Part shown: in pieces, positions 10,461 to 64,000 of the stretch | How positions within the stretch are numbered: position 1 is the stretch's first letter | Layout: the number at the start of each line of letters is the position of its first letter | Assembly (NCBI GenBank): GCA_051313645.2 | Contig: JBNRSN020000009.1 | Location: 65,224,001 to 65,288,000 of the forward strand | From: Centroscyllium fabricii | Taxonomy: Eukaryota | Length of the DNA stretch: 64,000 nucleotides | Direction: 5' to 3' | Notes under the pieces: generated by a model | Databases searched by the model: none | What the model was told of the DNA's origin: nothing | Seen by the model: the letters and a program-made list of their open reading frames with translations, nothing else | Position numbers and translations under genes: made by a program

Positions 10461-11959
10461 CAGGGTGCTACAAAATTTTTTTTTTTCCACTTGCCCAGTT
10501 GGGCAAGTGGATTTCTAAAACACTTGCCCGAACACAAATTGCACTTGCCCGAAATTTTTATATAGAACTGAATAAAGATTTTACATTTTTATTAAAATGC
10601 TTCAATATAAAGCCATAGATTGTGATTGTGCCTTTAGTTGCACTGGCCCGGTTTCTACCCCGCTCTGCCAGGGTCTCTCTCTCTCTACTCTGAACATTCT
10701 TCCCTCATTTACCAAACTTTCTGAAGCCTCCGCAGGCCACAGGCTCCCTCACTCTCTCGCCCCGCATACCTTTGTCCAGCAGCTGCTCCGGTTTTTTCTC
10801 TCGCACTCAGCGGGTCGATGGCACAGACCCACTCTTGCTGCGCGCCACCAGCCCGCTCCACCTAACCCGACTGCTGCCCCGTCCCGATTGACATGCCGCC
10901 TCCTCCAATCCCCGCCGCGCCGCCCGGCCGGCCAATCTGCACCCGCCTCCAGGATGGGATCCACCTACCCGTGTCCGTGACCTCGATCATCGAGCGGGCA
11001 AGCGGTTTGTTGTGCCCTGGACTGATCCTGGATTCGGTCTCTGGGTGCCAGCGTCCCTGGATTCGGTCTCTGGGTGCCAGCGTCCCTGGATTCGGTCTCT
11101 GGGTGCCAGCGTCCCTGGATTCGGTCTCTGGGTGCCAGCGTCCCTGGATTCGGTCTCTGGGTGCCAGCGTCCCTGGATTCGGTCTCTGGGTGCCAGCGTC
11201 CCTGGATTCGGTCTCTGGGTGCCAGCGTCCCTGGATTCGGTCTCTGGGTGCCAGCGTCCCTGGATTCGGTCTCTGGGTGCCAGCGTCCCTGGATTCGGTC
11301 TCTGGGTGCCAGCGTCCCTGGATTCGGTCTCTGGGTGCCAGCGTCCCTGGATTCGGTCTCTGGGTGCCAGCGTCCCTGGATTCGGTCTCTGGGTGCCAGC
11401 GTCCCTGGATTCGGTCTCTGGGTGCCAGCGTCCCTGGATTCGGTCTCTGGGTGCCAGCGTCCCTGGATTCGGCAGACTAGTGACATGTGCCCCTAATGGA
11501 TATGCATCAGAGCTCTGTCAGACCACTGACAAGCACCACCCCCCGGGACACACACTGGAAAAGCTGCCACTCCACTCGCACTGCAGCCACGTGACACGGG
11601 CCTGGCTCCATACGTTCAAAGGTTCCCCTCTGCCGCGGACACAGTGAAGTGAGCCGAGGTGTTGCGGCGCCGAGCAGCAGGCGGCCGGAGCAAGCTATGA
11701 TTGGCCAAGCATGGGTAGGGGGCGGGGCGCAGCGCGAGAAAACTGCCGGGCTGTGATTGGCCGAGCTCGGGCAGGGCAGAGTTCAAAACCAATCGGCCGA
11801 GGCGCGCTCGCCTCCAGGGCGGGATCCACCCACCCGTTCCCACAGCCTCACTCATCGAGCCTTACTTGCCCGGTCAGGCAAGTAAGATTTTCAATTACTT
11901 GCCCGGCGGCGCATTTTACTTGCCCCAGGCAAGCCGGCAAGCAGTTTTGTCGCGCCCTG
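10461..11959. mobile_element. Non-autonomous hAT-like DNA transposon with 5-bp target-site duplication (TSD)
   Basis: TIR CAGGGTGCTACAAAA / TTTTGTCGCGCCCTG (13 of 15). TSD TAGTG at 10456-10460 and 11960-11964. Clustered subterminal ACTTGCCC motifs at both ends. Confidence 0.85.
11027..11472. repeat. Minisatellite, 29-bp unit, about 15.4 copies
   Basis: Unit cctggattcggtctctgggtgccagcgtc, head-to-tail, no variation seen and no spacers. Confidence 0.97.
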
Positions 11960-33781: not shown

Positions 33782-36700
33782 TGATGCACGATCAATTATA
33801 CTCAAAGACTGGTTGAGGTACAACTAAGGCTTTTATTAGCAGAGAACTGAGCCCGGCTCCTTCCACAGTCGAGTCCTGGAGAAAATGGAGAAGGCCAGCA
33901 AGCAGCTGCCTTTATACTCGGTATGTGGGTGGAGCCCGAGCTGACCGAGTCCTCCGAGGTAAGAGATTACACAGGGTACAATCCAACAGTGGTGACGAAC
34001 GGTATTACAAGTAACTATGTACAACAGTAAATAACATGGTAGTAAACAGTAGTGTATAACAGGTAACTATGTACAACAGTAGATAACGCGGTGGTAAACA
34101 GAATTGTGGTTTACCACATTCACCCCTCATTTAAAATGGTTCCGGCGGGGTCAAAGATCAAGTCTGTTGGGGGGTCTGATCATCCTGAGTGAGCGGCGTA
34201 GTTCCGGCTGCTGCGCGGGTCTCCAGGCGGGGTGGTCTGCGTCGTTGGTGGCGTGGCCGGAGTCATCGGAGAGTCGTGCATCGGCTGGTCCCGGGTTGCT
34301 GACGTACCGTCTACAGGGGCTAGAGAAAAGGAGGGTAACAGCGGTTCATCAAGAGATACGGTGGGAGGGTTGGAGACTTGGTGGTAGGGGGTGGGGATTT
34401 GGTGGAGGGGGGTGGTGGTCGAAGAGTCACCCGGGGGCACCAGATCCCTGATAGAGACTGTGTCCTCCTGCCCATCGGGGAATGCCACATAGGCATATTG
34501 GGGGTTGGCGTGGAGGAGCTGAACCCTTTCAACCAGGGGATCCGTCTTATGGCCCCTCACGTGCTTCCTGAGTAGGACTGGTCCTGGGGACGTCAGCCAC
34601 AATGGTACGAAGGTCCCCGAGGTGGACTTCCTAGGAAACGCAAACATCCGCTCGTGAGGGGTGGCGTTAGTCGCAGTGCAGAGCAGCGACCTAATGGAGT
34701 GGAGCGCGTCAGGGAGAACCACCTGCCAGCGGGAGACTGGGAGGTCCCTAGACCGCAGGGCTAGAGGACAGCCTTCCAGACTGTCCCATTCTCCCTCTCC
34801 ACCTGGCCATTCCCTCGGGGGTTGTAGCTGGTAGTCCTGCTCGTAGCCACTCCTTTTGCGAGCAGGTACTGGCGCAGCTCATCGCTCATAAATGAGGAGC
34901 CCTGGTCACTGTGAATGTAGTTGGGGAGGCCGAATTGGCAAAGATGCTGTGTAGGGCCTTGATGACCATGGCAGCGGTCATGTCTGGGCAAGGGATGGCG
35001 AAGGGGAAACGTGAGTACTCGTTGATGACGGTCAGGATGTACACGTTCCGGTCGGAGGAGGGGAGGGGCACTTTGAAGTCGACGCTGAGGCGCTCAAAGG
35101 GGCGGGTGGCCTTAACTAGGTTAGCTCTGTCCGGTCTGTAGAAGTGCGGTTTACACTCTGCGCAGATGGAGCAACTCTGGGTGACGGCCCGGACCTCCAC
35201 AACGGAGTAGGGCAGGTTGCGGGCTTTTACAAAATGGAAGAAGCGGGTGACTCCCGGGTGACAGAGCTCATTATGGAGGGATTTCAATCTATCCCCTTGT
35301 GCGCTGGCACAGGTTCCGCGGGATAGCGCGTCTGGGGGCTCATTGAGTTTACCGGGCCGGTACAAGGTGTCGTAATTATAGGTGGACAGCTCAATTCTCC
35401 ACCTCAGGATCTTGTCATTTTTGATCTTGCTCCGCTGTTAATTGTTAAACATGAAAGCCACTGAACGCTGGTCAGTGAGCAGGGTGAATCTTTTACCGGC
35501 CAGGTAATGTCTCCAGTGCCGCACCGCCTCCACAATGGCCTGGGCTTCTTTTTCCACAGAGGAGTGCTTGATTTCTGGGCCTTGGAGGGTGCGGGAAAAG
35601 AAGGCCACAGGTCGCCCTGCCTGATTGAGGGTAGCGGCAAGAGCGAAGTCGGAGGCATCGCTTTCCACCTGGAACAGGGTAGATTCGTCCATGGCATGCA
35701 TGGTCGCTTTAACGATGTCCGATTTCATGCTCTCGAAGGCTATGCGAGCTTCAGCCGCCAGGGGGAAAGAGGTGGATTTAATGAGGGGGCGTGCCTTGTC
35801 CACATAGCGAGGGACCCACTAGGCGTAATATGAGAAAAAGCAGAGGCACCTTTTCAGGGCCTTGAGGCTGTGGGGGAGGGGAAGCTCCATGAGGGGGCGC
35901 ATGCGTTCAGGGTCGGGACTGATGATCCCATTCTCCATGACACAGCCCAGAATGGCCAGGCGGGTGGTGTGGAAGATGCATTTCTCCTTGTTGTAGGTGA
36001 GGTTAAGGAGCTGAGCTGTCTGGAGAAATTTTGCCAAATTGGCGTTGTGGTCCTGCATGTCATGGCCGCAGATGGTCACATTATTCAAATAAGGGAAGGT
36101 AGCCCGCAGTCCGTTCTGGTCCACCATACGGTCCATCTCCTGCTGGAAGACAGATACCCCGTTGATGACGCCAAAAGGGACCCGGAGGTAGTGGTAGAGA
36201 CAGCTGTTTGCTTCAAAGGCGGTGTACTGGCGGTCTTCGGGGCGGATGGGGAGCTGGTGGTACGCAGACTTCAGGTCGATCGTTGAGAACACCCGATACT
36301 GTGCAATCTGATTTACCATGTCAGAGATGCGTGGTAGGGGGTACGCGTCCAGCTGGATATACCTATTTATGGTCTGTCTGTAGTTGATAACCAAGCGATG
36401 TCTTAACGACTACCACTTGGGCGCTCCAGGAGCTGGTGCTAGCCTCGATGACCCCCTCCTTCAGGAGCCGCTGAACCTCTGCTTTGATAAAAAGCCTATT
36501 CCCCAGACTGTAGCATCTGCTCTTTGTGGCTATCGGCTTCCAGTCCGGGGTGAGGTTAGCGAACAGCGGGGGAGGGGCGACCTTGAGGGTCGACAGGCTA
36601 CAGACTGTGCGTGGCTGTGTTTTAGAAAACTGCCGGCTGCACACCGTGGGGGGGGGGGGGGGGGGGGGGAGGGAGGGGCCCACCGTACTTCATTATGACG

Positions 36701-38712
36701 CTGTCGAGGTGGCTCTGAAAATCTAGCCCGAGCAGAACGGCAGCGCAGAGGTCAGGGAGGACAAAAAGCTTAAAATGATTATAGACCGTGCCCCGCACCG
36801 ACAGTGTGACGTATCGTCAATAACAAAGACGAGTAGTTACCTTAACTATAGGCTTTTATTAGCTTTACAAAGGAGCTACGCTCCGGTCGAACATCAGGTA
36901 CAGAATGAATGGGGGCAGGTGAGACCCCACCTATAAGGCACTCACCTGAGGGGAGGAGTTAGAGGTGTGGCTGACCTGACCCCGCGACAGTGTCGTAATA
37001 CAAAAACTATGTACAGTGCACCCAGCCGCTATACATGCTGGTTTATATTGTGCTTCACTATTAGTGGTAATAACAGTTACCACACAGTGTAACAAAACAA
37101 CATCCGCTGACATCCGCAGTCTGAGTTCGAGAGACCAGGTAAATCCGTTGGCTCGCCAGGCGGACCAGGATGGAAAGCCTCCTTACTGTGTCCGGGTCAA
37201 TAAAACTTTCCGTGCTGCCTGAGTCAAAAAGGCAGTTTGTATCGCGGCCGTTTACCTTAATGTCCATAGTCGATCTGGCGAGCTGATGGGGCCTGGATTG
37301 ATCCAGGGTGATGGAAGCCAGGTGAGGCAGCACCAGATCCGATTCTTCTGGCAAGGGAGGTGTGGGGGGGGGGGGGGGGAGGCTGGCGCAATCGGAGGCG
37401 CCCAGGTCCGCGATGCCTGTACCAAATATGGCGGCGCCCACAGGTCGCACGCGACTGGGGAGGATTCAAAATGGCCGCCCAATTCAAAATGGCCACCCGC
37501 ACGTTCCCCATGCGGCTGAAGATGGCGGCGCCCACGAATCGCACGCGGCCGTCCAAGATGGCCGCTCGACTGGGACACACGTGGCACTGCTGGGGTTGGG
37601 GGGAGGGTCTGGACCTACAGACACTAGCGTAGTGCCCCTTTTTCTTGCAGCCGGAGCACGTTGCCTCTCTCGCCGGGCAGCGCTGCCTGGGGTGCTTGGA
37701 CTAGCCACAGAAGTAGCATTTCTGGGCGCACGTTGCCGCTGCCGACATTAGCGGGGGGGGGCGCAGTGGGGGTTGTGATTCCTACCGTCCATGATGGCTG
37801 CGCCCGCGCTGTCCACAAGGTGGTCGGCTGGTTGTAGGCCTCTGCGTTTGTGTGTGCCACATCCAGTGACTGTACCAGGGCTGTTGCTGCATCACAGTCC
37901 AAGTCCTTATTTTCGAGCAGCCGCTGGCGGGTGCGGTTTGACTGTACGCCGGCAATGATAGCATCGCGAATGAGCTTGTCTAGGTGGTCCTCCGCCATTA
38001 TGGCCTGGCAGCCGCAGTCCAACCCGAGCTCCCGCAGCACCCGGATAAAATCAGTGGCTGACTCACCGGGTTGTTGTCTGCGGCTCAGGAGGAGGTGTCT
38101 CGCGTAAACTGTGTTAACCGGGGCTGCAAACTGCTTTTTAAGGGCCCGCATGGCGTAGACGTAGGTCGTTGCGTTTTGGATCATCCCATAGATCGACGGG
38201 CTGACTCGGGACAGCAGGACCGCCAGTTTGTTTGCGTCTAAGGTGACGGTTTCGCCAAAGGCCACCAGAAATAGCTCGAGAGCCAGTGTTCGAATCTTCA
38301 CAGGGTGCTTGCTGATTGGAGGTCTAGCTCCAGGAGCCGTGGCATCAGGATCTTATCCATTGGCAAAAAATTCTGCTAATAAAATTGATGCACGATCAAT
38401 TATACTCAAAGACTGGTTGAGGTACAACTGAGGCTTTTATTAGCAGAGAACTGAGCCCGGCTCTTTCTACAGTCAAGTCCTAGAGAAAATGGAGAAGGCC
38501 AGCAAGCAGCTGCCTTTATACTTGGTATGTGGGTCGAGCCAGAGCTGACCGAGTCCTCCGAGGCACAGGGTACAATCCAACAGTGGTGGCGAACGGTATT
38601 ACAAGTAACTATGTCCAACAGTAAATAACATGGTAGTAAACAGTAGTGTATAACAGGTAACTATGTACAACAGTAGATAACACGGTGGTAAACAGTATTG
38701 TGGTTTACCACA
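33782..38712 (-). mobile_element. Gypsy LTR retrotransposon G1 (5' LTR 38386-38712, 3' LTR 33782-34118), degenerate gag-pol
   Basis: TG..CA LTRs and polypurine tract (PPT) ATGAGGGGTGAA. Protease LFDSGSTES, RT LDAYPLPRI/IDLKSAYHQ, RNase H ESDASD, integrase HSDQG/GNGQVE. TSD imperfect. Confidence 0.95.
36807..37084 (-). mobile_element. Solo LTR (family of the G3 3' LTR) inserted into G1
   Basis: TG..CA ends; 5-bp TSD CAGTG at 36802-36806 and 37085-37089; highly similar to 48470-48780. Confidence 0.92.
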
Positions 38713-40626: not shown

Positions 40627-43600
40627 TGTCTTATTTTGCACACTTTGTACAAAAATATATATTGCAGGAAAATGGAGTATTATAAATTAACTCTTTTATT
40701 ACAGCATAAGGTCTGATCTTACTTCTAGCAGCTCCACTGGGAAAGTGTGGCTTTAGGACCCCTGTTCCAGAACTTTCCAAACAGTAGCTGTCCTTGCAGA
40801 ATGCCTGCAGCCAATGACATTTCAGTATGCAAGTATTACATCCCCTTTCTTTTAAAAGAAAAATGTTATGCATTACGTTTAAACCGTTCTTCTACATAAT
40901 GTTCCCGGTAGCATAAACATATAAGTAAACTCAGCATTTAACTAACACTGAAAACATCTCAACATTTCTATGTACAGTTTTAGGGCAGCGAATCACCTAC
41001 ACCCTTTGGCAGTTCACAAGCCAAGGATAACTCTGGGCTTGACCTCTCATCCCGACCTTGTGTGGTATGCCCCTGAATCAGTCAACAGTTCAGGTTCAGG
41101 TTTAGGTTCAGGTAAGTATGATGTGTTTTGTGTATTGCTCTGTTCATCACAGTCTGTTGAACTGATCCCCTCGTCGGAATGACGGTGTTGTTCCTTGGTG
41201 TTCAGGAGGTGCCTGCGATTCTGCTCCATGTCAGCTGGCTGGATGACGATTGCTGGCTTCCAGTCGTCATGCTGCTGGATTCTGACGGATTCTCCATTGT
41301 GCAGCGGCGGCAGTAGTATAGCTGACCTGTGATAGTATCGCTTTTGGTGTTGCTGTCTCTGTATACGTTTTAAATGCACTTGCTTGCAGCTGACGACCTC
41401 TGGCTGTAGCTGCTGGTTTGAGCTTGGAAGGATTGAGCGAAGTCTGCGGCTCAACAGTTGCGCTGGTGACTTGAAGTTGCCAACCGGCATGTTGCGGTAC
41501 TCAAGGAGACTGACATATGGGTCTTTTTGTCCGCTTTGGCTTTGTCCACGAGTGTTTTTGCAATATGGACAGTTTTTTCAGCAAGGCCATTCCTTTGAGG
41601 GTAATGTGGGCTTGGTGTGACATGTGTGAAATCCCATGCCTTGGCAAACGACTCGAACTCTTTTGATGTTTATTGGGGGCCATGGTTGGAGACTAAATTC
41701 TCTACTATGCCATGCCTGGCAAAAGCGGTCTTTAGCTTGTGGATCACAGCTGCAGATGTGGTGCTGTGAAGCTTGTCCAGTTCAAAAAATCTGCTGTAAT
41801 AGTCAACAGTCACTATGTAGTCCTCATTGTTCCATGTGAACAGATCCGTTGCCGCGACCTGCCAGGGACTGTCTGGGATATGGTGAGGTATCATGGGCTC
41901 TTTGACATTTGATGGGCGGCGTTCTAGACAAATGGAACATTTTCCAACAATGTCCTCAATGTGTTTGCACATTCTGGGCCAAAACATAATGTCACGTGCT
42001 CTTTGTTTGCACTTTTCCATGCCCATTAATCCAGCATGAACTTTTGTCAACATCTCTTCTCTGAGACTGGTAGGGATGATGATTTTCTCCCCTTTGAAGA
42101 CGATTTTGTTGATTTGTGACGGTTCGTCTCTGTAGTTCCAGAATTCAGATATGCTCTGAGGGCATTTCCTGCTTTCCTCAGGCCATCCTTCATGTAGGAC
42201 TTTGCTCAGCAGTGTGAGATGTGCAGCTTTCTCTGTTTCTGCTCGATCTCCTTCAGTTTTGAGTCACTCAGGTATGCTGTTATACATCATGTGCACCTGC
42301 ACATCCATGCCGTCACTAAGGCTGCTGTCCTGGTAGCTAAGAGACTTTCTGGAAAGTGTGTCTGCAACAGGAATGTCTTTTCCTGGACAGTGGATGATTG
42401 TGAAGTCGTACTTCTGTAGCTGAAGGACCATTCTCTGTAGCCTTGGTGGGGCTGCGGCTAGCGGTTTCCTCATAATTGACTCGAGGGGCTGGTGGTCGGA
42501 TTCCACAATGACTTGTCGGCCATAGATGTACTGGTGGAAATGCTTACATTCGAACAGAATTGCACATAGCTCTTTCTCAATTTGAGCATAGTTGATTTCA
42601 CTATTTGAGGGAGATCTGGAAGTGTAGCTGATAGGCTTTCCTTCTTGCAGTAATACTGCACCTAGTCCGTACTTTGACGCATCCACTTGTAGTCTGAGCG
42701 CTTTTTTGGGGTCAAAGTAGGCAAGAGCTGGTCTTGGTTCTCTGGTGATTAGGTCTTTCATTTTCTGAAATGCTATGTCATGTTGTTTATCCCACAGGAA
42801 TTCATTGGATTGTTTGAGCAACTGATGCATGGTTGCATTGATTTCGGTGAGGCTCGGGGCAAACTTGGCCAAGTAGTTAACCATGCCAAGTACTGTTTCT
42901 AGCTCTGCACAGTTCTTCGGCGGCTCCATCTTCTTGATGCGGAGATTTTCTCTGGATCCGGCTTAACACCATCAGTTGAGAAGCGATGCCCGAAATAACT
43001 GATCTCGGTGGATCTGATTATGCTTTCCTCGGGGTTGAGCCGGATACCTTTCTCCTGTGATCTTTGTAGCATCACACGGAGGTTCCTGTCATGTTCCTCT
43101 CTATTCCTGCCATAAATGAGGATGTCGTCTACGATTGCAACTACTCCATCAAGGCCTTCATAGGTTTCGTCAATCTTCTGCTGGAATTCATCCTGAGCTG
43201 AGAAGACCAAATGGTAAACGCAGAAATCGGTAGTGCATCCATGACACTGAAGTAACATGCTCCCACTAGCTTGGGTGTGATGTCATCTAGCATTGGTAGA
43301 GGGTAGTGAGGACATTTAATAGCCTTGTTCAAATCTCTGGGGTCGAGACAGACTGAGCTTGCCTGTACGTGGTTTCTCAACCACTACTAACGTGTAGACC
43401 CACTCTGTCGGTTCTGTTTCCTGGACGATGATTTCTCCATGCTCTGCAGCTCCTCCTTCAGGCGGCTATGTAGAGCAAGGGGTATTCTTCAGTGGGCAAA
43501 CCACAGGGGTTGCTGCTGGGTCAAGGTGAATAGTGCATTCACCTGGGAAGAGTCAGATTCCCTTGAAAACGTCGGCAAACTCCTCCATGACTGTCTGCTT

Positions 43601-44207
43601 CTCAACTGGTGCTGTCAATGATAGCACTAGCTTGATGAGGTCCATGTCTAAACATGCCTTTAGACCTAGCACTGGAGGTGCTCGACTGTCAATGCAAAAG
43701 TCCATCATGTCGCTTTCTTTGTACTTGCATTTCATCGCGCATGTGCCTTTTACCACGAGCTGCTCGCCTCCATAGCTGGTCAGTCTGCATGAAGTGGACT
43801 GAAGCTCACACTCACCCTTCAAGCTGTGATACTCACTCAGAGGAATTATGTTAACTTGAGCTCCAGAGTCTAGCTTAAATCTAAGCTGTGCCCTGTTTTC
43901 CTACCTCGATGTCTGCGAAAGCTTGTTCAGTCTCTGAAATCTGGTTTTTTCTGTGACTCAGAATCGATAAACAGTTCCTCTGTATTTGGCTCTCTATCTG
44001 GCATTTGGCTGTCACTCACTGTGTGTACTGCTTTCCCAAAAAACATTATGCACACTTTAGCAAAGTGGTTCCGTTTACCACATTGCCTTCCTCTGGCAGG
44101 GCAATTCTCATTTTCCCGACGCACCTTATTTCCACAATGCCCACAGTTTCTGAATCGTTTTATGTCTGTGTCACCCATTTTTAGAACTCTGTTCTGAAAC
44201 TCGTGCG
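40627..44207 (-). mobile_element. Gypsy G2 (Mag-like) 3' part: zinc knuckle, pol, PPT, 3' LTR 40627-40840
   Basis: CGKRNHFAKVC, KLDSGAQVN, CLDPRDLN, IVDDILIYG, VDASKYGLG, PPRLQRM, VDYYSRF; PPT AAAAGAAAGGGGA before TGTAATAC. Confidence 0.92.
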
Positions 44208-45186
44208 TGAGGGACAAGATTTAGTTACTATAGCAGGTAAGTTAATTTTTTAACTTTAATTTAATTTTTTTTACAGTTTTGGGGAGTAATGTGGCCAGAT
44301 CGGTTGCGTTAAATTTTTAAGTTAAAGTTTAAAAAAAAAATTACAAATCCAATTTTAAGTTAATTTACCTGTTTCAAATCGCTAATTTTTAAAGTTAAAT
44401 TTCTGGAATTTTTAACTGTAGCTATAATAAAAAATCTAAGAGGAAAAATGGCAGACTTACCTAGCGTTTCTTCCTCTGAGAAGCTGCTGTGCCCGCGCTG
44501 CTCCCCGCCGAGTCTGTGAGTGCAGCTCCGCACGTCCCTGCTCTCACAAAGGTCCGACTCGGGATCTGTGCACATTTTAAAATTTAAATTAGGGATCTGG
44601 GGGCGTATTTTATTTAAATTTGGGATCTGTGGGCGGGGCATACACTGCGCACCTAGCGTGGCTGGACTGCCACGCAGCGCAGGAATGGGGAGGAAAGTCA
44701 GGGAGCAACTTCTGTGCGATGTTGGTGCGTGCGATAGGTGTCCGCAGGGTCCTAGCGCACGCACCAACCTGCACAGACGAAATTCTGGCCCATTATGTAT
44801 ACCCTCGCATTTCTGGTATCATCCTTGTAAATCTTCTCTACACCCTCTCCAGTGCCTCTACATCCTTTTTATAATTGCCCAGAAATTCGGGTTCGAGGCT
44901 TCCCGCGTGTGTTAGCCTCCAACCTGCACTAACCTTGCGTGCCGGCCATTGAGCTGTGGGCCCACATGGAATTCCAATCCAGGGCCTGCTTCAACTGCCG
45001 GCGCACTGTGCTTGCGTATCCCAGTGACGCAGTTAGTGCGATGGATCACGTGGGCCATGGAGAGCCAATCCGAGCAGAGAGTGCTCCATTCATAAGTTTG
45101 ACAGGAAGAGCTGTCAAAACTATGAAAACTACAAGCCCCAAAACATCACTGAAACGTCAAATAATGTTTATTTTTTTTAAATCACA

Positions 45187-45975
45187 ATATTTGCATACTG
45201 AATTGTCATTGGCTGCAGGCATTCTGCAAGGACAGCTACTGTTTGGAAAGTTCTGGAACAGGGGTTCTAAAGCCACACTTTTCCAGTGGATCAGACCTTA
45301 TGCTGTAATAAGAATTAATTTATAATACTCCATTGTCCTGCAATAAATTTTTGTACAAAGTGTGCAAAACAAGACATGGTGTCAGAATAAGGGATTGAAA
45401 ATGGAAATTGTTGGAGCTCCCTCACCAAGAATAAATTGGGAGTTTTTAAAATTTACCCAGAGGATGGCGCAAGTTCAAGCAGCACGTCGACTTGATGTTT
45501 GCTGGTCCTCTGCAAAGCAAAGGGGAGGAAGAAAGATAGAGATTTTTTTAATACATGGTCTCTCACCACAGATGAAGCTTAGGTACTGAAAAAATTATTT
45601 GATTGTTTTGAATTATATGTGATGCCCAAGAAAAATACGATATTCGCTAGGTACAAGTTTCAGCAGAAAGTACAAGCACCTAGTGAGTCACTTGAACAGT
45701 TCGTGACTGAATTAAAACTGCTGGTAAAGGACTGTGAATATGCAGATCAAGACGAAATGGTCAGAGACTGCATCGTGTTTGGAATACATTCAACTGAAGT
45801 GAGAGAGAAACCTTTGAATGTTGGGTCCGGGCTAACGCTGGACAAAGCTATAGACATAGCTAGATCGCATGAGATAGCCCAAGCACAGTTGAAAACCATA
45901 GCCATGAGCTGCTTGCATGAACAGACAGCGCACGCGGTGTTTAAATACATACCAAAGAACACCACCCAGAGAGCG
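45187..45975 (+). mobile_element. Gypsy G2 5' part: 5' LTR (about 45187-45376), tRNA primer-binding site (PBS), gag
   Basis: LTR is an inverted copy of 40627-40836. PBS TGGTGTCAGAA at 45377-45387 is complementary to a tRNA-Leu 3' end. Gag motifs FARYKF..ESLEQFVTELK..LTLDKAI. Confidence 0.9.
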
Positions 45976-47297: not shown

Positions 47298-48469
47298 ATG
47301 GCAGGGCAGCTCAGTCCTACGGAATGCACATCCTGTGCTATGTGGGAAATCAAGAATGCTTCCCATGTCCTGGACAACCACGTGCATGCAGGAAGTGTCG
47401 TCATCTGGAGGAGCTCGAGCAGCAGCTGGCATCACAGCGGTGGATCCGCAAGGCTGAGAGTTTCATGGGTAGCGCGTTTCAGGAGGTGGTCACCCCACAG
47501 ATAAGGAGAGCACAGGCAGACAGGGAATGGGTGACAGTCAAACTGAAAATGAGGACCAGGCAGGTAGTGCAGGAGTTCCCGGAGTGCATCTCGCTCTCCA
47601 ACTAGTATTTGTTCTCCGTACTGCTGAGGGTGATGGTTCCTCTGGGGAGTACAGCCAGAGCCAAGTCCACAGCACCACAGGTGGCTCAACTGTACGGGAG
47701 GGGAAGAAGAGTGGGAGAGCAATAGTGGTAGGGGATTCGATAGTTAGGGGAGCAGACAAGCGTTTCTGTGGCTGTAGACGTAACTCCAGGATGGTATGTT
47801 GCCTCCCTGGTGCCAGGGTCAAGGATGTCACTGAATGGCTGCAGAACATTCTGAGGGGGGAGAGTGAACAGCCAGAGGTCGTGGTCCATATTGGTACCAA
47901 TGACATAGGTAGAAAGCGGGATGAGGTCCTGCAGGCAGATTTTAGGGAGCTAGGAAAGAGATTAAAAAGCAGGACCTCAAAGATAGTAATTTCCGGATTA
48001 CTCCCGGTACCACGCGCAAGTGAGTATAGAAATAGTAAGATAAAACAGATGAATGCGTGGCTGGTGAGAGAGGGAGGGCTTCAGATTCCTGGGGCATTGG
48101 GACCGGTTTTGGGGGAGGTGGGACCTGTACAGGCCGGACGGGTTTCACCGCAACAGGGCCGGAACCAATATCCTTGCAGGGAGGTTTGCGAGTGCTGTTG
48201 GGGTGGGTTTAAACTAATTTGGCAGGGGGATGAGCACCAGGATGGTAACATTAGAAAGTGGAAATAAAGTGCTCAAAGGATTGGAAGAGGCAGAGAGCAC
48301 TAAAGTAAGAAAGAGTAAGGTATTAGGTGGTGTCCAACTAAGACAGAATACAGAATGGTCTAAGATGGATTTACAGTGTATGTATGTGAATGCACGAAGT
48401 GTAGTAAAGGTAAGTGAGCTGCAGGCACAAATAGCCACATGGGAATATGATGTTGTGGCAATAACAGAC
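47298..48469 (+). mobile_element. CR1 5' part (ORF1 esterase and ORF2 start)
   Basis: MAGQLSPTECTSC, VGDSIVRG, VHIGTND, NARS..YDVVAIT. Confidence 0.92.
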
Positions 48470-51400
48470 TGACGTATCGTCAATAGTCTTAATAAAACCA
48501 AGGACGAGTAGTTACCTTAACTAGAGGCTTTTATTAGCTTACAATGGAGCTACGCTCCGATCGAACATCAGGTACAGAATGGATAGGGGCAGGTCAGTCC
48601 CCACCTATAAGGCACTCACCTGAGGGGAGGAGTTAGAGGTGTGGCTGACCTGACCCCGCGACAGTGTCGCAATACAAGGCAGTGTATTACAGTATATTAT
48701 GTACCCGGCCGCTATACATGCAATGCAATATTGGCAACAATATTGGGGCGGTAAAGAGTACATATATAACGGTTACCACATTCACCCCTTCTTTGAAAAT
48801 TAAGTCCGGCGGGGTGAATGGACCGAGCAGTTCATAAGTTTATCCGGCGGCCGCATCTGTCTGGAGGACCGCCGGGTCTCTGTTAACGGTTCAGGTGCTT
48901 GCAGTGTCGGCCCTGGTGTTGGTGGTGGCGGCGGCGGCGCTGTAGGTGCTGATGGTGGTGATGGGGCCGAGCCCCGTGGTTGCTGCTGTGCCTGCGGCTG
49001 GTCGTCTGTTTCCTGGTCCTCAGCTGGCAGTGGCGGGGGCTGTGGTGCGTACGGTAGTAGCGGCCAGCCTCCGGTGGGTTGCGGGTGATGAGTCGGCCAA
49101 TGGTCGAGATGTAGTGGCTGGAGGTGGCCGAAATGTAGTGGCTGGGCGTGCTGGGGCCCGGCCAAGGGTTCTGCTGCGGTGCTCCCGGCGGGCGCTAGGT
49201 CCCTGATGGAGACGGTGTCCTCGCACCTGTCCGGAAACTGCACGTATGCGTACTGCAGGTTGGCGTGCAGCAGCTGCACCTTGTCTACCAGGGGGTCGGT
49301 CTTGTGGCCGCGGACATGCCCTAAGCAAGACCGGCCCCGGCATCGTCAGCCATGGTGGGAGGGCTGTCCCCGAAGTCGACTTCCTGGGGAAGGAAAAAAG
49401 CAAATCATGAGGTGTGGCGTTAGTGGCCGTACACAAGAGAGCGGATCGAGTGCAGCGCGTCTGGGAGGACTGCCTGCCAATGGGACACTGGAAGGCCTCT
49501 GGACTTCAGGGCCAGGCTGACCGCCTTCCAGATGATCCCGTTCTCCCTTTCTACCTGGCCGTTCCCCCGGGGGTTGTAACTGGTCGTTCTGCTCGAGGCA
49601 ACCCCTTTCTGGAGCAGAAATTGGGGTTTGCACTCGGCGCAGATAGGGCACTCTTTGGTCATAGCCTTTATCTCCGGAATGGAGTAGGGGAGGCTACGGG
49701 ATTGGACGAAGTGGGCGAGTCTGGTGACACCCGGGTGGCAGAGGCGATCGTGGAGGGCCTTCAGCCGGTCCAGCTGGGCGCTGGCGCACATTCCCCTGGA
49801 CAAGGCGTCCGGGGGTTCGTTGAGTTTGCCTGGACGGTAAAGAATGTCGTACTCGTAAGTCGAGAGTTCGATCCGCCACCGCAGGATCTTATCATTCTTG
49901 ATCTTACCCGGTTGTTTATTATTAAACATAAACGCCACCGACCGTTGGTCGGTGAGCAGGGTAAAACGCTTACCGGCCAGGTAATGACGCCAGTAGCGCA
50001 CTGCCTCCACGATAGCCTGGGCCTCCTTCTCCACTGCTGAGTGCCGAGTTTCGGGTCCCTGTAGGGTCCGGGAGAAAAACGCTACGGGCCTGCCTGCCTG
50101 GTTCAGAATGGCGGCAAGGACGAAGTCCGAAGTGTCACTCTCCACCTGGAAAGGGATGGACTCATCAACGGCGTGCATGGTCGCCTTGATGATGTCTTCC
50201 TTAATCCGAGCGAATGCCATTTGGGCTTCTTCCGAGAGGGGGAAGACGTCGGCCTTGAGGAGGGGTCTGGCCTTATCCGCGTACTGGGGGACCCATTGCG
50301 CGTAATAAGAAAAGAACACTAGACATCTCCTCAGGGCTTTGGGGTTGTGAGGTAAGGGCAGCTCTTGCAAGGGGCGCATACGCTGTGGGTCGGGGCCGAG
50401 GACTCCGTTTTCCACCACGTATCCGAGGATAGCGAGCCGATCCGTACTAAAGACACACTTGTCTTTATTATATGTGAGGTCCAGCCGTTTCGCCGTGTGC
50501 AGGAATTTGGCGAGGTTGGCATCGTGGTCCTGCTGGTCATGGCCGCAGATGGTCACGTTGTCCAGGTTGGGGAAGGTGGCCTGCAACCCGTTCTGGTCAA
50601 CCATACGGTCCATCTCCCTCTGGAACACGGACACCCCGTTGGTCACGCCGAAGGGGACCCGGAGGAAGTGGTAGAGCCGGCCGTTCGCCTCGAAGGCGGT
50701 GTACTGGCAGTCGGCTTTCCGGATGGGGAGTGGTGATACGCCGACTTGAGGTCAATTGTGGAAAAGACCTTGTACTGGGCGATCTGGTTTACCATATCCG
50801 AGATGCGGGGGAGGGGGTAGGCGTCGAGCCCGGTGTAGCGATTAATCGTCTGGCTATAGTCGATGACCATGCGCAGTTTCTCACCCGTCTTAACCACTAT
50901 GACCTGGGCCCGCCAGGGGCTGGTGCTGGCCTCAATGATCCCCTCTTGCAGCATACGCCCGACTTCCGACCTGATAAACGCCCGGTCCCCTGCACTGTAA
51001 CGCCGACTTTTGCTAGCAATGGGCTTGCATTTGGGGTCGAGATTGGTGAACAGTGAAGGGGGGTCGACTTTTAATGTGGACAGGCTGCAAGTCGAGCTCC
51101 GCGTTAAGTTGGGATTGTCCCAGCTACTGACGGTGAGGGGGGCCAGGGTCCCACCGAAATCCATCGTCACGCTCTTCAGGTGGCACTGGAAATCCAGTCC
51201 CAGTAAGACTGGGGCGTACAGCTGCTGGAGCACGTAAAACTTAAAATTGCGGTAAATGCAGTCCCTGATCGTGAGCGTGATGCTGCAGTAGCCGGTAACG
51301 TCCGCCGTGTGGGACTTTGAGGAAAGGGAGACCTGGTAGTGCGTGGGCTGGGTCTGCAGTGCGTAGCACCGTACTGTGTCGGGATGAATAAAGCTCTCTG

Positions 51401-53131
51401 TGCTACCGGTGTCGAACAGGCAGTTAGTGACGTGCCCGTCCACCTTAATCCCCATCATGGAGTTGGACAAGGTGTGCGGCCTAGCCTGATCGACGGTGGC
51501 TGAGGCCGAGGTATATGTGAGAGAGTCGGGGCCCTCCGCTAGCTGGGGCCCCGGCCGGGGCAGTTGGCAAGATGGCCGCTCAGAAGATGGCGGCGCTGGC
51601 AATGCGCCTGTGTCCGGCTGCTGTGGGCAAGATGGCGGCGCCCGTGGTTCGCACGCGGCCGACCGCGGTGGACAAGATGGCGGCGCCCGTGGTTCGCACG
51701 CAGCCGACCGCGGTGGACAAGATGGCGGCGCCAGGGGGGTCGCACATTGCCGACCGCGGAGGATAAGATGGCGGCGCCAGTGGTTCGCACACGGCCGACC
51801 GCGGTGGACAAGATGGCGGCGCCCGTGGTCCGCACGCGGCCGACCGCGGTGGACAAGATGGCGGCGCCGGGGGGTCGCACATGGCCGACCGCTGTTGATA
51901 AGATGGCGGCGCCGGGGGTCGCACATGGCCGGTCGCGGTCGCGTTTGGAGTGGCAGCGCCTGTGCCGCGCGCGCGGCCGGCCTCCGCCGTATAGTTAAAG
52001 GGGATTGAGGCACCCGCGATTTACCCCCGGCTGACCGCTGCTGGGTTGCGCAGCAACACCGTACCTGGAGCCATGGAGTGGCATCGCTGTTCTCACAGGC
52101 CGCGCTGTTGGGTCTGGAGGTGGAGGCTGGGCTGGACTTGCACACCTTCGCGTAGTGCCCCTTCTTCGCGCACCGCTCGCAGTTCGCATTCCTCGCGGGG
52201 CACTGCGCCCACGGGTGCTTCCCTTGGCCGCAGAAGTAGCATCTGTGCCCCGCCGGAGTCTTCGCAGCCGCCGCTGCCATCGTGGGGGTCTCGGCCAGTC
52301 GCTGTGTTGCCCAGGGGTCAGGGGTATCGTGTGGGCCGTGGGCTCCGTACAACTCCAGGTTTCGGAGCGCTCCGTCCACCGCATTGGAAAGAGTTATTGC
52401 GGCCTCGAGCGACAGTGTGTCCTGCTCCAGCAGCCGCTGGCGGGCCTGGCTGGACCTGAGTCCAGCCACATAGGCATCCAGATTAGGAGGTTCGCTTCTT
52501 CCTCCGCCGTCCTTTCCTGGCAGTCACAGGCCCGTGCGAGGGCCTGAAGCGCTAGTAGGAACGGTTCATTGGACTCACCGAGTCGTTGTCTTCTGGTCGC
52601 CAGAACATGCCTGGCATAGACCGAGTGGACCGGGCGCATGTAGCAGTTCTTCAGTTTCTTAACCGCTTCCCCGTACGTCTTGAGGCCGCAGATAAAGGAA
52701 TACACCCGGCCGCTGATCCGTGATGAGAGTACCTGGAGTTTGTCCTCATCACGCGTAGCCTTTACACCCTTCATGCAGGCCGAACCAGTGTTCGAAGTTG
52801 TTAGCAGCATCGGGTGCCTGAGGATCGATGTCGAGGCGATCCGGTTTCACTACGTTACTCCCGATGTTTTAAAATTAAGTGAATAAAATTGACGTATCGT
52901 CAATCAAACACAAAAGACGAGTAATTACCCAAACTACAGGCTTTTATTCACTTACAATGGAGCTAGTCTCCTGTCGAGTTCAAGGCGAGAGTGAGCCCTC
53001 ACCTATATGCTCCCACCTGAGGGGAGGAGTTAGAGGTGTGGCTGACCTGGCCTAGCGTACAATGTCCAGGTGAACACATCAATATATACACTGGTAATAC
53101 ACGGTTAGCACACTACAGGCTTCACACTACA
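48470..53131 (-). mobile_element. Gypsy G3 (3' LTR 48470-48780; 5' LTR from 52890 to about 53112-53131), probably chimeric
   Basis: CCHC knuckle CERCAKKGHYAKVC, LFDTGSTES, LDAYPLPRI, IKNDKILRWRIELS, integrase with internal deletion; PPT AAAGAAGGGGTGAA. Confidence 0.93.
51568..51930. repeat. 45-46 bp tandem array (7 units plus 2 degenerate) in the G3 gag-protease linker
   Basis: Unit approximately caagatggcggcgcccgtggttcgcacgcggccgaccgcggtgga. Confidence 0.92.
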
Positions 53132-58695: not shown

Positions 58696-61600
58696 TGTGG
58701 GGTAAACCACCATGTTGTATATATTGTATAATTTCTCCCCCTTGTGTCTCCTCCTTGTAATTACAGTGCCTGTATATAGTTTGTGACTTCTTGTCTGGGA
58801 GGACTCAGCTCCCCTTCCAGGCTCCACCCACGTACCTGGATATAAATCTGCATGCACACTCTTTCGCTTTCACTTTAACCGTGAAGATCGCCTAGACCTG
58901 TAGTAACAGTTCCAAGCTAATAAAAGCCTCAGTTGCATCAAACCATCGACTGGTTGTAATTGATTGTGCATCAATTTTATTAGCTTAGTTTTACTGGAAA
59001 AGTTTCCTGTGGAAGATGGAAAGGTTTCTGAGACCCGACCAACGAGAACTCATCCCCCGATCAGCAGGCACTGAGCGGGCCTTTGCGCACTGGGTCTCTT
59101 GCTCCGAGTCCTTCCTTTAAGAATCCCGCGACACTGTGAACACAGAACAGCGAAAACTTAAAGTCCTGCGAGCTCGAATCAGCCCAGAACTCTTCAGTTT
59201 AATCAAGGGCGAAACGACCTACACGAACGCTATGGACATTTTAAAAGCTCGCTTCATAGCCCCGATGAAAGAGGTCTACTCTAGACACCTCTTACTGAGC
59301 AGAAAACAGCAGCCTGGTGAGTCATTTGCAGACTTTATGGCAGCGTTGCGAACAGTCATGCGCGCCTGCAATTGCAAACCGTTGACTGTCAACCAGCACC
59401 AGGACTTAATCCTCAGGGACGCCCTTGTGGCAGGACTCCGGTCCACATATACCCTCCAGCGGCTGCTGGAGCAGGGTAATATAGACTTAAGTACTGCCAA
59501 AGCGCTAGCCGAATCGCTGGAAGTGGCACACGCCCAGGTGGAGGCATGTGACCAGCAGGGATCGCGGGCGCAAGCATCATGGGCGGGTGAATCGACCGCC
59601 GCTGTGCCCCCGCCCACATCCGCGGTGGCAGCCCGACCCCAGAGGTGCTATTTCTGCGGGCAGGCTAAACACCCCAGGCAGCGCTGCCCTGCGAAAGAAG
59701 CACTGTGCTCCAGCTGCAAAAAGGACGGACACTATGCAGCAGTCTGCAGGAGCAAACCCCTCCCCCCGGGCAGCGCGTGTTTCCACAGAGCAGCCATCTT
59801 GCAGCAGCCAGAACTCCCCTCCACATGGCGATCGTGGGGCCAGCCTGTGATAAACCCGTTTATCATAAGTATTATATGTATATAGTTAACTGACATGTAT
59901 TGATGTGTATTGATGTAATACCTGTACAGTAATACGATTACTGGGACATGCCCAGGTTGGCTCCACCCACGACTCCTCCCTCCCTGGAGGAGGTATATAA
60001 GTGGCTGCCTCCCATCCCCCGGCCATACCTGGGGACAGTCGACTAGCTGGTGTATGTCCCAGCTTGTAGTCAATAAAAGCCTAATTGTTTCTTCATCTAA
60101 CTACTCGTCCACGAGGTCGTTATTTCAGGTCACAATTTTATTGACTACAAGCTGGGACATACACTAGCTAGTCGACTGTCCCCAGGTACGTGTACTTCCT
60201 CAACATAATTGATGAGTACTCCCGCTTCCCCTTTGCCATCCCCTGCCCAGACATGACCTCCGCCACCGTCATCAAAGCCCTCAATAGTATCTTCTCCCTG
60301 TTCGGCTATCCCAACTATATCCATAGTGACCGGGGGGCGTCCTTTATGAGCGACGAGCTGCGCCAGTTTCTGCTAGCCAAAGGCATCGCGACTAGCAGGA
60401 CTACCAGCTACAACCCCCGGGGGAACGGACAGGTAGAGAGGGAGAACGCCACTGTCTGGAAGGCCATCCTGCTAGCCCTACGGTCTAAAGGCCTCCCAGT
60501 CTCCCGATGGCAGGAAGCCCTCCCTGAAGCGCTCCACTCTATCTGGTCCCTCCTGTGTACCGCCACTAATGCCACCCCTCACGAAAGACTTTTTGCCTTC
60601 CCCAGGAAGTCAGCTTCCGGGACCTCGCTACCATCGTGGCTACTATCCCCGGGACCGGTCCTGCTACGGAAGCACGTGAGGGGGCACAAGGCAGATCCCC
60701 TGGTCGAACGGGTCCACCTCCTGCACGCCAACCCCCAGTACGCCTACGTGGCGTACCCCGACGGGAGGGAGGACACCGTGTCCATAAAGGACCTGGCACC
60801 AGCGCGAGTCCCCAAACCCAGCCCCGCCCAGCAGCCCAAGCACCCAAGAAGCCCCGCTCAGCAGCCCGCGCACCCAAAACGCCCTGTTACGCTCCCCCAG
60901 CCACCGGCGCCAAGGTACGCTCCCCGGCACGTGGACCCAGTACCCCAATACGCCCACACGGCACCTGCGAGCAGCACGGCATGGCCTCCAGCTTGGCTCC
61001 ACAGCGCGCGCCCCCTAGAGTCAGAGGACGAAGGAGAGAGCGCGCCCCCTGCTGTCAGAACAAGGGCACCACCACCCAGAAGAAATATATCAACGACCAC
61101 CGCTCGCCAACCGGCACCGGCACCACCACAACAACCGACCCGGCCAGCCACCCCGCGACCACGGACACCACCAGCGGTGCGACGATCGACGAGGATCACC
61201 AGACCGCCGGAGCGACTTAACCTATGATTAAAGAACTTTTTCTTTTCACCCTGCCGGACTTTTGTTGGATTAAAGAACTTTTTTCTTTCACCCCGCCGGA
61301 CTTTTGTTTTAAAGAAAGGGTGAATGTGATAAACCCGTATATCATAAGTATTATATGTATATAGTTAACTGACATGTATTGATGTGATACCTGTACAGTA
61401 ATACGATTACTGGGACATGCCCAGGTTGGCTCCACCTATGACTCCTCCCTCCCTGGAGGAGGTATATAAGTGGCTGCCTCCCATCCCCCGGCCATACCTG
61501 GGAACAGTCGACTAGCTGGTGTATGTCCCAGCTTGTAGTCAATAAAAGCCTAATTGTTTCTTCATCTAACTACTCGTCCACGAGGTCGTTATTTCAGGTC

Positions 61601-62676
61601 ACACAGCCATTTTGAATTGGGTGGCCATCTTGAGCCCTCCTCCCCTCCACATGGCGATCATGGGAGCAGCCATTTTGAATTGGGCGGCCATCCTGAGTCC
61701 TCCTCAGCCGCATTTAACTGTGGGCGCCGCCACGTTTAACCCGGACGTACCCAGCACGGAATTGGCCAGCATCACCCGCCTCTACAGGCAGCGACCTACA
61801 AGAGGACCTGCAACTCCCACAACTCGCCTCGATCACCCTGGATCAGACCCGACCTCATCAACTTGCACGATCTACCATGGATATTGAAGTAAACGGCCGT
61901 GCGGTTAACTGCCTATTTGACTCGGGGAGTACTGAAAGTTTTATACACCCGGACACGGTACGGAGGCTTTCCCTCACTGTACTCCCCGCGCGCCAGCGTA
62001 TCTCACTGGCTTCCAACACAGCGACTGCGGAAGTCGGTGGTCTCTGCGTAGTTACACTTAAGGTGCGGGGTACTGTGTATAGCCGGTTTAAACTGTTCGT
62101 CCTTCCCCCATCTCTGCACTGCCGTCCTGCTAGGCCTCGATTTCCAAAGCCACCTCGACAGCGTCATCATGAAATACGGTGGCCCCCTCCCCCCATTGAC
62201 CGTCTGTAGCCAGCAGTTTTTACAACGTAAGCCCCACACTGTCTGCAGCCTTTTGACTCTCAAGGTCGCCCCCCCTCATTATTTGCTAACCTAACCCCCA
62301 ACTGCAAGCCCATCACTACCAAAAGCAGGCACTACAGCACGGGGGACAGACTGTTCATTAAGTCGGAGGTCCAGCGACTCCTGAGGGAGGGGAACATCGA
62401 GGCCAGCAACAGCCCCTCGAGAGCCCAGGTTGTGGTCGTCAAGACCCGCACCAAACACCGCCTGGTCATCGACTACAGCCAGACGATCAAGCGCTTCACT
62501 CAATTGGACGCACACCCGCTGCCCCGCATCTCCGACATGGTCAATGAGATTGCGCAGTACAGCGTGTTTTCTTCAATTGACCTTAAGTCGGCGTATCATC
62601 AGCTCCCCATCCGCCCTGGAGACCGTAATTTCACCGCCTTTGAGGCGAACGGCCGCCTCCATCACTTTCTTAGGGT
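58696..62676 (+). mobile_element. Gypsy G4 (5' LTR 58696-58973, gag, protease, RT start), interrupted by G5 and G6
   Basis: TG..CA LTR with TATAAA at 58841 and AATAAA at 58919. Gag knuckle CSSCKKDGHYAAVC, LFDSGSTES, IDLKSAYHQ. Confidence 0.92.
59846..61603 (+). mobile_element. Gypsy G5, internally deleted (LTRs 59846-60134 and 61325-61603), integrase core ORF only
   Basis: 5-bp TSD CAGCC at 59841-59845 and 61604-61608; near-identical LTRs. ORF 60190-61227 IDEYSRFPF..HSDRG..GNGQVERE; PPT AAAGAAAGGGTGAA. Confidence 0.95.
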
Positions 62677-64000
62677 TGTAGCGCTGGCAAGGCCTAGAAA
62701 CCACACGTGAGCCAGAGAGCTGGAGAAAACACTTGTTTAATGCATTAGAGTTAAACAGGAAAGAGAGTGAACCACTCGAAACAAGCTTATTTAAACTGCC
62801 CGCCGTTGGTGACGTCATCACGCAGGAAGACGTGGTGACGTCGTCGCGTCACCCGGATGAGCGGGGCGGATTCAGTGTCCAAGTGGGCGTGCCGCCACAC
62901 AGCTCCCCCCCCAGAATCCGTCCGGGAGAAATAGAAAAGAGTCTATGTGAGCCGTTGGGGTGGCCAGATGATGCGGCCGGCCCGTGTTGTGCGTTGCTTC
63001 TGGTTCTGCGGTGGAGTGTGGGCGGGTGTTGTTGCGGGAGGGCGTCCGCGTTGCGGTGGTTGTGCGGGGACTGTCGTCTCGCCCGCTATAAACGTGTGCC
63101 GGCTTGAGCCGGTCTACTGTAACAGTTTCTGTCCTGTTGCCCATTTGAAGCTGGAAAGCTTTAGCTCCCACCCGAAGCACTCTATAAGGGCCATCGTATG
63201 GTGGCTGTAGTGGTGATCGGTGTCCGTCACGCCGGACGAACACAAATTTTGCATTTTTAATGCTGTCCGGTACTCGTGCTGCCGGCTCTCCGTGCCGGGC
63301 CACTGGTAGTGGCTGGAAAGCTCGTGCCGGGTTGGCAAAGTCTTTTAGGTACTGGTCGGCTGACCAGGGAGCGTTTGGTTCGGCTAAAAATTCGCCCGGC
63401 ACTGTTAGGGCCTGGCCGTATACGAGTTCTGCTGCCGAGGCGTTTAGGTCCTCTTTGACTGCCGAGCGCAGCCCGAGGAGGACCCATGGAAGGTGGTCGG
63501 TACAAGACGCATCCTTGAGGGTGGCTCGCAGTGATGCCTTCATAGATCGGTGGAACCGTTCGCAGAGCACGTTAGCTTGTGGGTGGTATGCGGTGGTTCG
63601 ATGCAAGGTTACCCCGAGGTCGCGGGCGATGGCCGCCCATAGTGCTGACGTGAACTGGGGCCCTCTGTCGGAGGTGATGTCGGTGGGCACGCTGAAGCGG
63701 GCGACCCAGGTGGCGATGAACGCCCTGGCCAAGTCCGTGGTGCCGGTGGCAGCGAGGGGGACTGCTTCTGGCCAGCGAGTGTTGCGGTCGACCATGGTCA
63801 TTACGTGCGTGTGGCCCCGGGATGGCGGTAGTGGCCCGACGAGATCAATGTGGACGTGGTCAAAGCGTCTGGCCGGCACTTTAAATGTTTCCAGCGGGGC
63901 CCTGATGTGCTTATGCACTTTGGAGCGCTGGCAGGCAATGCAGGAGTTGGCCCAGGCGCGGACGTCTTTGCGCAGGCCGCGCCATACGAACCGGGCCGAG
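62677..64000 (-). mobile_element. Gypsy G6 (CsRn1-like): integrase and 3' LTR 62677-62899; continues beyond the window
   Basis: HVHIDLVGPLP..DRNTRWPEAVPL..TSDRGPQF..TTAYHPQAN..PYDGPYRV; PPT GGGGGGGGAG. Confidence 0.9.

Follow-up and report, generated by a model that had tools for sequence, protein, structure and literature searches.

An Antisense Copy of R at the Primer Binding Site of a Deleted Gypsy Element from Centroscyllium fabricii: a Possible Run-Off Copy of a Capped Self-Primer

An Internally Deleted Gypsy Element Nested in Another

The window analyzed here is a stretch of 64,000 nucleotides of genomic DNA from Centroscyllium fabricii (contig JBNRSN020000009.1, positions 65,224,001 to 65,288,000 of the forward strand), and all coordinates are those of the window unless another locus is named. 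Between 59846 and 61603 lies G5, an internally deleted Gypsy element flanked by a 5-bp target-site duplication, CAGCC, the left copy of which (59841-59845) is identical to the right one (61604-61608). G5 is nested in another Gypsy element, whose sequence resumes on both flanks. Its features are all read on the plus strand. Comparison of the two ends delimits a 5′ LTR of 289 nt that begins with TG and ends with CA (59846-60134) and a 3′ LTR of 279 nt (61325-61603), which differ by four substitutions and an indel of 10 nt; a polypurine tract (61311-61324) marks the upstream edge of the 3′ LTR. Between the LTRs there is nothing but the antisense tract described below and an integrase remnant (60189-61227), in which Pfam recognizes the integrase core (rve, profile positions 22-102 of 102); gag, protease, reverse transcriptase (RT) and RNase H are absent from this interval. 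A sister element used for comparison indicates a loss of about 3.0 kb, including the zinc finger and the first catalytic Asp motif of the integrase. The remnant protein, P0001, reaches its stop codon, and Pfam finds no chromodomain in it, rve being the sole match. The integrase adjoins the polypurine tract, and the order protease-RT-RNase H-integrase is complete in sister elements and relatives. Paired LTRs, polypurine tract, target-site duplication and integrase-last gene order identify G5 as a Ty3/Gypsy LTR retrotransposon. Its closest named protein relatives come from Hypanus (79% identity) and, at about 60-65%, from Narcine and many invertebrates, and no other N-terminus like that of G5 was found among the stored proteins with the integrase motif (102 of 121).

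The 53-nt Antisense Tract

Immediately downstream of the 5′ LTR, 60136-60188 reads as 60026-60078 in reverse complement, with agreement at 52 of 53 positions, as a first-pass annotation of this DNA had stated; its observations that TATATAA begins at 59994, 32 nt ahead of 60026, and that the copy runs directly into the integrase core (Pfam rve) with gag, protease, RT and RNase H missing are likewise borne out. The only mismatch (60049/60165) would be a G-U pair as RNA, and complementarity ends abruptly past either end of the tract. Such complementarity is not due to chance, given a blastn E value of 5e-21 and a predicted 53-bp RNA stem with a folding z of -19.8, a stability equaled by none of 200 shuffled sequences. 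The tract begins one spacer base past the LTR-terminal CA (60134) and ends at the integrase core, where A60188 can be assigned to either side of the junction, so that the copy ends at 60187 or 60188 and its last base pairs with 60027 or 60026, respectively. At the junction itself (60184-60189), the sister element and 11 contigs of run X3 reveal imperfect microhomology to the integrase acceptor. The tract carries the G60034 state of the 5′ LTR, not the A61503 of the 3′ LTR. Its single mismatch is uninformative for dating or sourcing the tract (32% expected from ageing alone), and reading C60189 as a copy of the cap is unnecessary since the sister integrase also has a C at that position.

The tract has two parts. 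The copied R segment (60026-60078) corresponds to predicted transcript positions +2 to +54, the proposed primer being 60025-60078, and ends with 13 nt (60066-60078) terminating in AATAAAA that, according to folding and sequence comparison, pair with 60136-60148. Family contigs identify the latter segment as the normal primer binding site (PBS), which begins one base past the LTR end and does not start with TGG. The remaining 40 nt (60149-60188), antisense to 60026-60065 as judged by alignment, contigs and folding, constitute an acquired extension and the proposed fossil.

A Short Stem in the Parent Family

Four of the 21 public sequencing runs listed supplied the family contigs from which this division was derived, by comparison with 59700-61324. 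The G5 family is very abundant, with 43,697 matching contigs in run X1 and 32,443, 13,968 and 209 in the other runs. Two contigs of run X5 track G5 up to 60148, i.e., through 13 bases of the tract, and then diverge into an ATG-led gag-like start, while 11 contigs of run X3 part from G5 before 60190 and enter the normal upstream integrase frame. Because the contigs diverge at these points, 60136-60148 is the normal PBS and 60149-60188 was acquired: the 40 bases beyond the PBS are an acquired templated copy. The parent had been predicted to show 12-13 nt of complementarity only, which agrees with the 13 nt followed by a gag start in the two X5 contigs, and a parent already endowed with the 53-nt stem is thereby ruled out. 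Among the contig rows examined (24 of the 885 loose ends, 32 of the approximately 90,000 pieces), there was neither a contig across 60188/60189 nor a second extended tract. Read depth in the bin 60140-60194 is unusable as a measure of the copy number of the G5 junction, as contigs of R fit both arms.

Five contigs join the LTR end (60126-60135) directly to 60445, 60571, 60658, 60778 or 60975, with no PBS in between. These joints probably represent copies inserted into their own family and, given that G5 and a solo LTR of the window are also nested in relatives, a preference for insertion into related elements is possible.

Self-Pairing Primer Binding Sites in Sisters and Relatives

Short LTR/PBS stems are found in all three sister elements of the window, namely the host element of G5 (58914-58986, plus strand, 58914-58925 pairing with 58975-58986) and two elements on the minus strand (38372-38447 and 52876-52954), with 12, 13 and 13 perfect pairs, respectively, the letters of which differ from one sister to the next. 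In the sister at 48468-53125, the PBS agrees with the 5′ LTR and not with the 83%-identical 3′ LTR. Outside the window, 12 related loci were examined, all from contigs filed under bacterial metagenome-assembled genomes (MAGs), probably as host contamination. Five of them preserve a 5′ junction with CA, one spacer base and a self-pairing site of 13-17 nt, the LTR arm of which ends in TAAA or TAAAA in every case; the 17-nt stem of L197 (688-781) has an LTR arm ending in GGTAAA, which is not a poly(A) signal. The seven loci lacking a stem comprise three clade members cut off or disrupted before the LTR and four more distant elements. Across nine junctions, the feature common to the proposed cut may be TAAA(A), mostly followed by G. 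The PBS register of the G5 tract, one base past the CA, is shared by 3/3 window sisters and 5/5 related 5′ junctions, and none of these eight junctions has an extended tract. The contigs L192, L193 and L195, filed under bacterial MAGs, are circularly assembled animal-type retrotransposons of the G5 lineage and probably represent host contamination in public genomes.

The PBS of the G5 group is complementary to the element's own 5′ LTR and, judged by its lack of a TGG start, not to a tRNA 3′ end. None of the four junctions in the window or the five elsewhere has a PBS beginning with TGG, and Rfam returned no match within 59800-60300. The PBS stem appears in the predicted single-strand fold of 4/4 leaders and is stacked on a U5 stem in all four (minimum-energy single-strand folds without pseudoknots), weakly so in one (z -1.26). 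Scans for the LTR/PBS layout gave matches at chance level only: 117 loci in viral contigs, just 4 of which had stems of 10-12 nt, located in AT-rich DNA, and 74 loci in metagenome contigs, with stems of 7-8 nt only and one weak integrase-like match. Protein scans of the viral contigs found no relative.

The Copy Ends Just Inside the Predicted Transcription Start

The first-pass annotation expected transcription to start near 60024-60027, and motif prediction places it there: a TATA box (59994-60000) is followed by an initiator motif (60023-60029) with a predicted +1 at A60025, 31 nt past the first T of the TATA box. The initiator consensus motifs used were YYANWYY and BBCABW, and A60025 is their sole match in 59846-60065, the 220 nt upstream of the paired segment. 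The copy therefore ends at +2, or at +3 if its last A came from the acceptor, 1-2 nt inside the predicted start; the missing nucleotide could reflect scatter of the start site or the overwriting of the last base by the acceptor strand.

The same arrangement recurs in the neighborhood. A TATA-like word with an initiator A at +30/31 is present in 7 of the 8 LTR copies examined in the window, in all seven of which the predicted +1 lies 52-56 nt from the end of AATAAAA; in the eighth copy the stretch is shorter and the TATA-initiator spacing fails. These eight copies represent four LTR families, three of which, compared directly, are 72-75% alike. Throughout the window, 7 of 138 TATA-like hexamers, a set chosen after inspection of the LTRs, have an initiator at such spacing, a number equal to that of the LTR sites. 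In five relatives that are not shark-like, conservation of the distance between TATA box and initiator is not evident, although two of them have an initiator-like word 47-52 nt upstream. In view of these distant relatives and of the GGTAAA ending in one of them, the length of 54 nt and the association with the poly(A) signal may be peculiar to one lineage.

The chance of an endpoint at +1 to +3 is 1.4% if endpoints are uniform and 0.5-2.8% for geometrically distributed lengths, and reaches up to 4.6% if 2 nt are allowed on either side, so that a random endpoint would coincide with the predicted start in about 1-5% of cases overall. Microhomology does not fix the endpoint, since matches to the internal region of the sister of the same grade as that of the junction are available at 220/220 possible endpoints; for this reason the weak microhomology explains the acceptor and not the stop.

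A Capped Self-Primer and Its Rivals

We judge it somewhat more probable than not that G5 records the use of the capped 5′ end of its own transcript as an RT primer of about 54 nt, cut after AAUAAAA and paired over 13 nt, and that a run-off copy of this primer was rejoined within the integrase gene. RNA polymerase II would start at the predicted A60025, and +42 to +54 would pair in cis with the PBS, leaving the 5′ 41 nt of the primer unpaired. The RNA would be cut just past AAUAAAA, probably by the RNase H of the element as in Tf1. The plus strand, initiated at the polypurine tract, would copy U3-R-U5 and then the attached primer and, as no modified tRNA base would be there to halt synthesis, copying would reach the 5′ end of the primer. 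The resulting overshoot, not extendable at the PBS, would have met a weak microhomology within the integrase gene and annealed there, to the minus strand while this was still unfinished and not yet integrated or to an already resident copy, with a loss of about 3 kb. The pairing segment is also contained in the 3′ R of the genomic RNA, but copying of a primer made there would continue into U3, so that the stop at +2 favors the 5′ R as the source. If the primer is copied anew every time, each PBS would also stay in agreement with its own LTR, as the first-pass annotation proposed.

The first-pass annotation had proposed that RT copied the attached primer to its 5′ end and then switched template. 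Two observations that could have refuted this proposal did not do so, the parental stem being of 13 nt and the predicted start lying close to 60026, and the proposal is partly supported; the rejoining, however, need not be an RT template switch, because the same structure results if an overhanging cDNA end anneals to a resident element, as reported for Tf1, and the endpoint fits the 5′ end of a second RNA equally well. The claim rests on one event, with no second extended tract among the junctions and contig rows examined, and the disposal of a 41-nt overshoot in the normal cycle counts as a difficulty for a long primer.

The tract could instead have arisen on DNA by snap-back, a single-stranded 3′ end at the PBS folding on its own R across a 13-bp stem and a 57-nt loop, being extended there on DNA, and rejoining in the integrase gene, with a fortuitous stop. 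The extension could be the work of RT, if the strand was displaced plus strong-stop DNA, or of the host's synthesis-dependent end joining following a break. Repair of this kind yields longer inverted repeats with microhomology at the junction (PMC5728401), such microhomology is present here, the 13-bp stem pre-exists and is favored in folding, and the tract shares G60034 with the 5′ LTR and not A61503 with the 3′ LTR. Snap-back nevertheless requires the 1-5% coincidence with the predicted start. DNA bears no stop mark at +2, and the R hairpin would be expected to block extension near +37. In the assay described in PMC5728401, moreover, repeats of 3-4 nt less than 10 bp apart were the most used and those of 8-9 bp were little used. 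We thus regard a DNA-level origin as unlikely, albeit deserving of serious consideration. Rather less likely still is a run-off on a second RNA, in which the PBS copy of plus strong-stop DNA would anneal to the R of a co-packaged or short LTR transcript and be copied to its cap. Packaging of more than one RNA is known for LTR retroelements, all transcripts of the family can pair with the PBS, and identical start and end points are predicted; the tract would still mark the transcription start, and the true primer may then be shorter or act in trans. This route calls for one more strand transfer, and to a segment that is ordinarily occupied in pairing with its own PBS; a primer ending at AAUAAAA is still required, the 5′ part of which is most simply left attached. 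Finally, an inverted read-through could have been joined to an integrase piece during library preparation or assembly. The family is of very high copy number (43,697 contigs in run X1) and the junction is unbridged among the contigs examined (the loose ends and pieces mentioned above), and yet the paired LTRs, the intact target-site duplication and the continuity of the host element on both sides, together with a tract that has a private mismatch and both ends at functional sites, make such a chimera highly improbable.

Comparison with Known Systems

The Tf1/Tf2 elements and the Tf1/sushi group resemble G5 in that there is no tRNA site and the PBS pairs with their own 5′ R (PMC7175516; 10.1101/2022.12.06.519325), and in Tf1/sushi elements, too, cleavage must free a 3′ OH (PMC7175516; 10.1101/2022.12.06.519325; PMC11042837). 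The Tf1 primer consists of the transcript's initial 11 bases, freed by RNase H cleavage (PMC7175516). Roughly one in two Tf1 cDNAs retains the copied self-primer site in single-stranded form, and this tail can drive Rad52-dependent annealing at short homologies and resident elements (PMC11042837); a 3′ tail of single-stranded cDNA copied from the primer site and able to anneal where there is microhomology would be a further likeness to G5 (PMC11042837). On the other hand, the 11 bases of the Tf1 primer are fully paired, whereas in G5 the paired bases are +42 to +54 of the motif-predicted transcript, with 41 nt left unpaired, and Tf1/sushi chromoviruses bear a chromodomain at the C-terminal end of their integrase, for which the G5 integrase has no Pfam match. 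The leader of that group is further characterized by a 'pretzel' of three duplexes, with which the stacked PBS and U5 stems of the G5 group may be compared. G5 would work like Tf1 self-priming and yet falls outside the Tf1/sushi group, as that group is defined in 10.1101/2022.12.06.519325, because it has no chromodomain match and motif prediction puts 41 nt of transcript ahead of its paired segment. The plant Tcn1 and TAR elements, for which self-priming has been predicted from PBS/LTR complementarity of at least 10 nt (PMC6317226), belong to lineages distinct from that of G5.

In tRNA-primed Gypsy clades the PBS begins with TGG, a start seen at none of the nine G5-group junctions examined. 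In retroviral vectors, a second strand transfer that goes astray can produce deletions in which sequence derived from the primer is inserted. On native tRNA primers, plus-strand copying stops at m1A58, and an unmodified primer is copied to its 5′ end (PMC13191261); this over-extension of retroviral plus strong-stop DNA parallels the preferred reading of G5, with the difference that the retrovirus copies tRNA and G5 would copy its own capped R RNA. In the G5 lineage, such an overshoot may be the normal outcome rather than a mistake. Snap-back repair also combines a deletion with an inverted templated insertion and microhomology (PMC5728401), but it usually relies on short, close primers and has no cause to stop at a transcription start.

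In the open full-text literature covered here (titles and abstract openings, with few subscription journals and without Repbase), we found neither an internally paired capped self-primer nor a genomic copy of one. A long, capped, internally paired primer would be a new form of a known self-priming mechanism. That a widespread animal Gypsy lineage employs a capped self-primer of about 54 nt with 12-17 nt paired, routinely copies it to the cap and leaves fossils in deleted copies is a generalization that we advance tentatively, as slightly less probable than not.

Implications for Self-Priming Retrotransposons

Outside fission yeast, self-priming has mostly been inferred from short complementarity, which could alternatively just serve to conceal the 5′ poly(A) signal. 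Evidence of another kind comes from a run-off copy that stops where transcription starts, since it bears on the 5′ end of the primer and on its source in the 5′ R. If the proposed primer is real, the RNA duplex to be cleaved by RT has a long 5′ overhang, and the second strand transfer must cope with a 41-nt overshoot, unlike in tRNA-primed elements and Tf1. The cDNA would end with long antisense-R tails and the PBS would be re-templated from R in every cycle, while deleted copies such as G5 would record both primer and transcription start in genomic DNA. Where extended tracts end is testable computationally in any shark, ray or invertebrate assembly.

Neighboring Elements in the Window

Several other elements surround G5. 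The sister at 48468-53125 (minus strand) looks full-length, with LTRs that are only 83% alike over 175 aligned bases; its 3′ LTR is 90% like a solo LTR at about 36808-37082 and no target-site duplication is evident. This sister is probably a recombinant of two families. Around 49615, this sister is devoid of the first half of the integrase core, and a similar junction appears as a loose end before 60394 in three contigs of run X14, so this deletion may belong to an amplified non-autonomous family. The solo LTR (minus strand), of the same lineage, is nested in the pol of the sister at 33782-38711 and is flanked by near-duplicated ACACTGT-type sequence. A different Gypsy element at 40627-45376 has inverted LTR copies (87% over 211 nt) and, by eye, one LTR followed by a TGG-type tRNA primer site on the plus strand with pol on the minus strand, which suggests an internal inversion. 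At 62677-64000, the RT of the host element of G5 is interrupted by a Gypsy-like element with its integrase on the minus strand, which we take to resemble the CsRn1 group. Two tandem arrays are also present: one of 29-nt units (about 16 registers) at 10911-11559, and one of 45-nt units at 51539-51982, inside a gag-protease junction.
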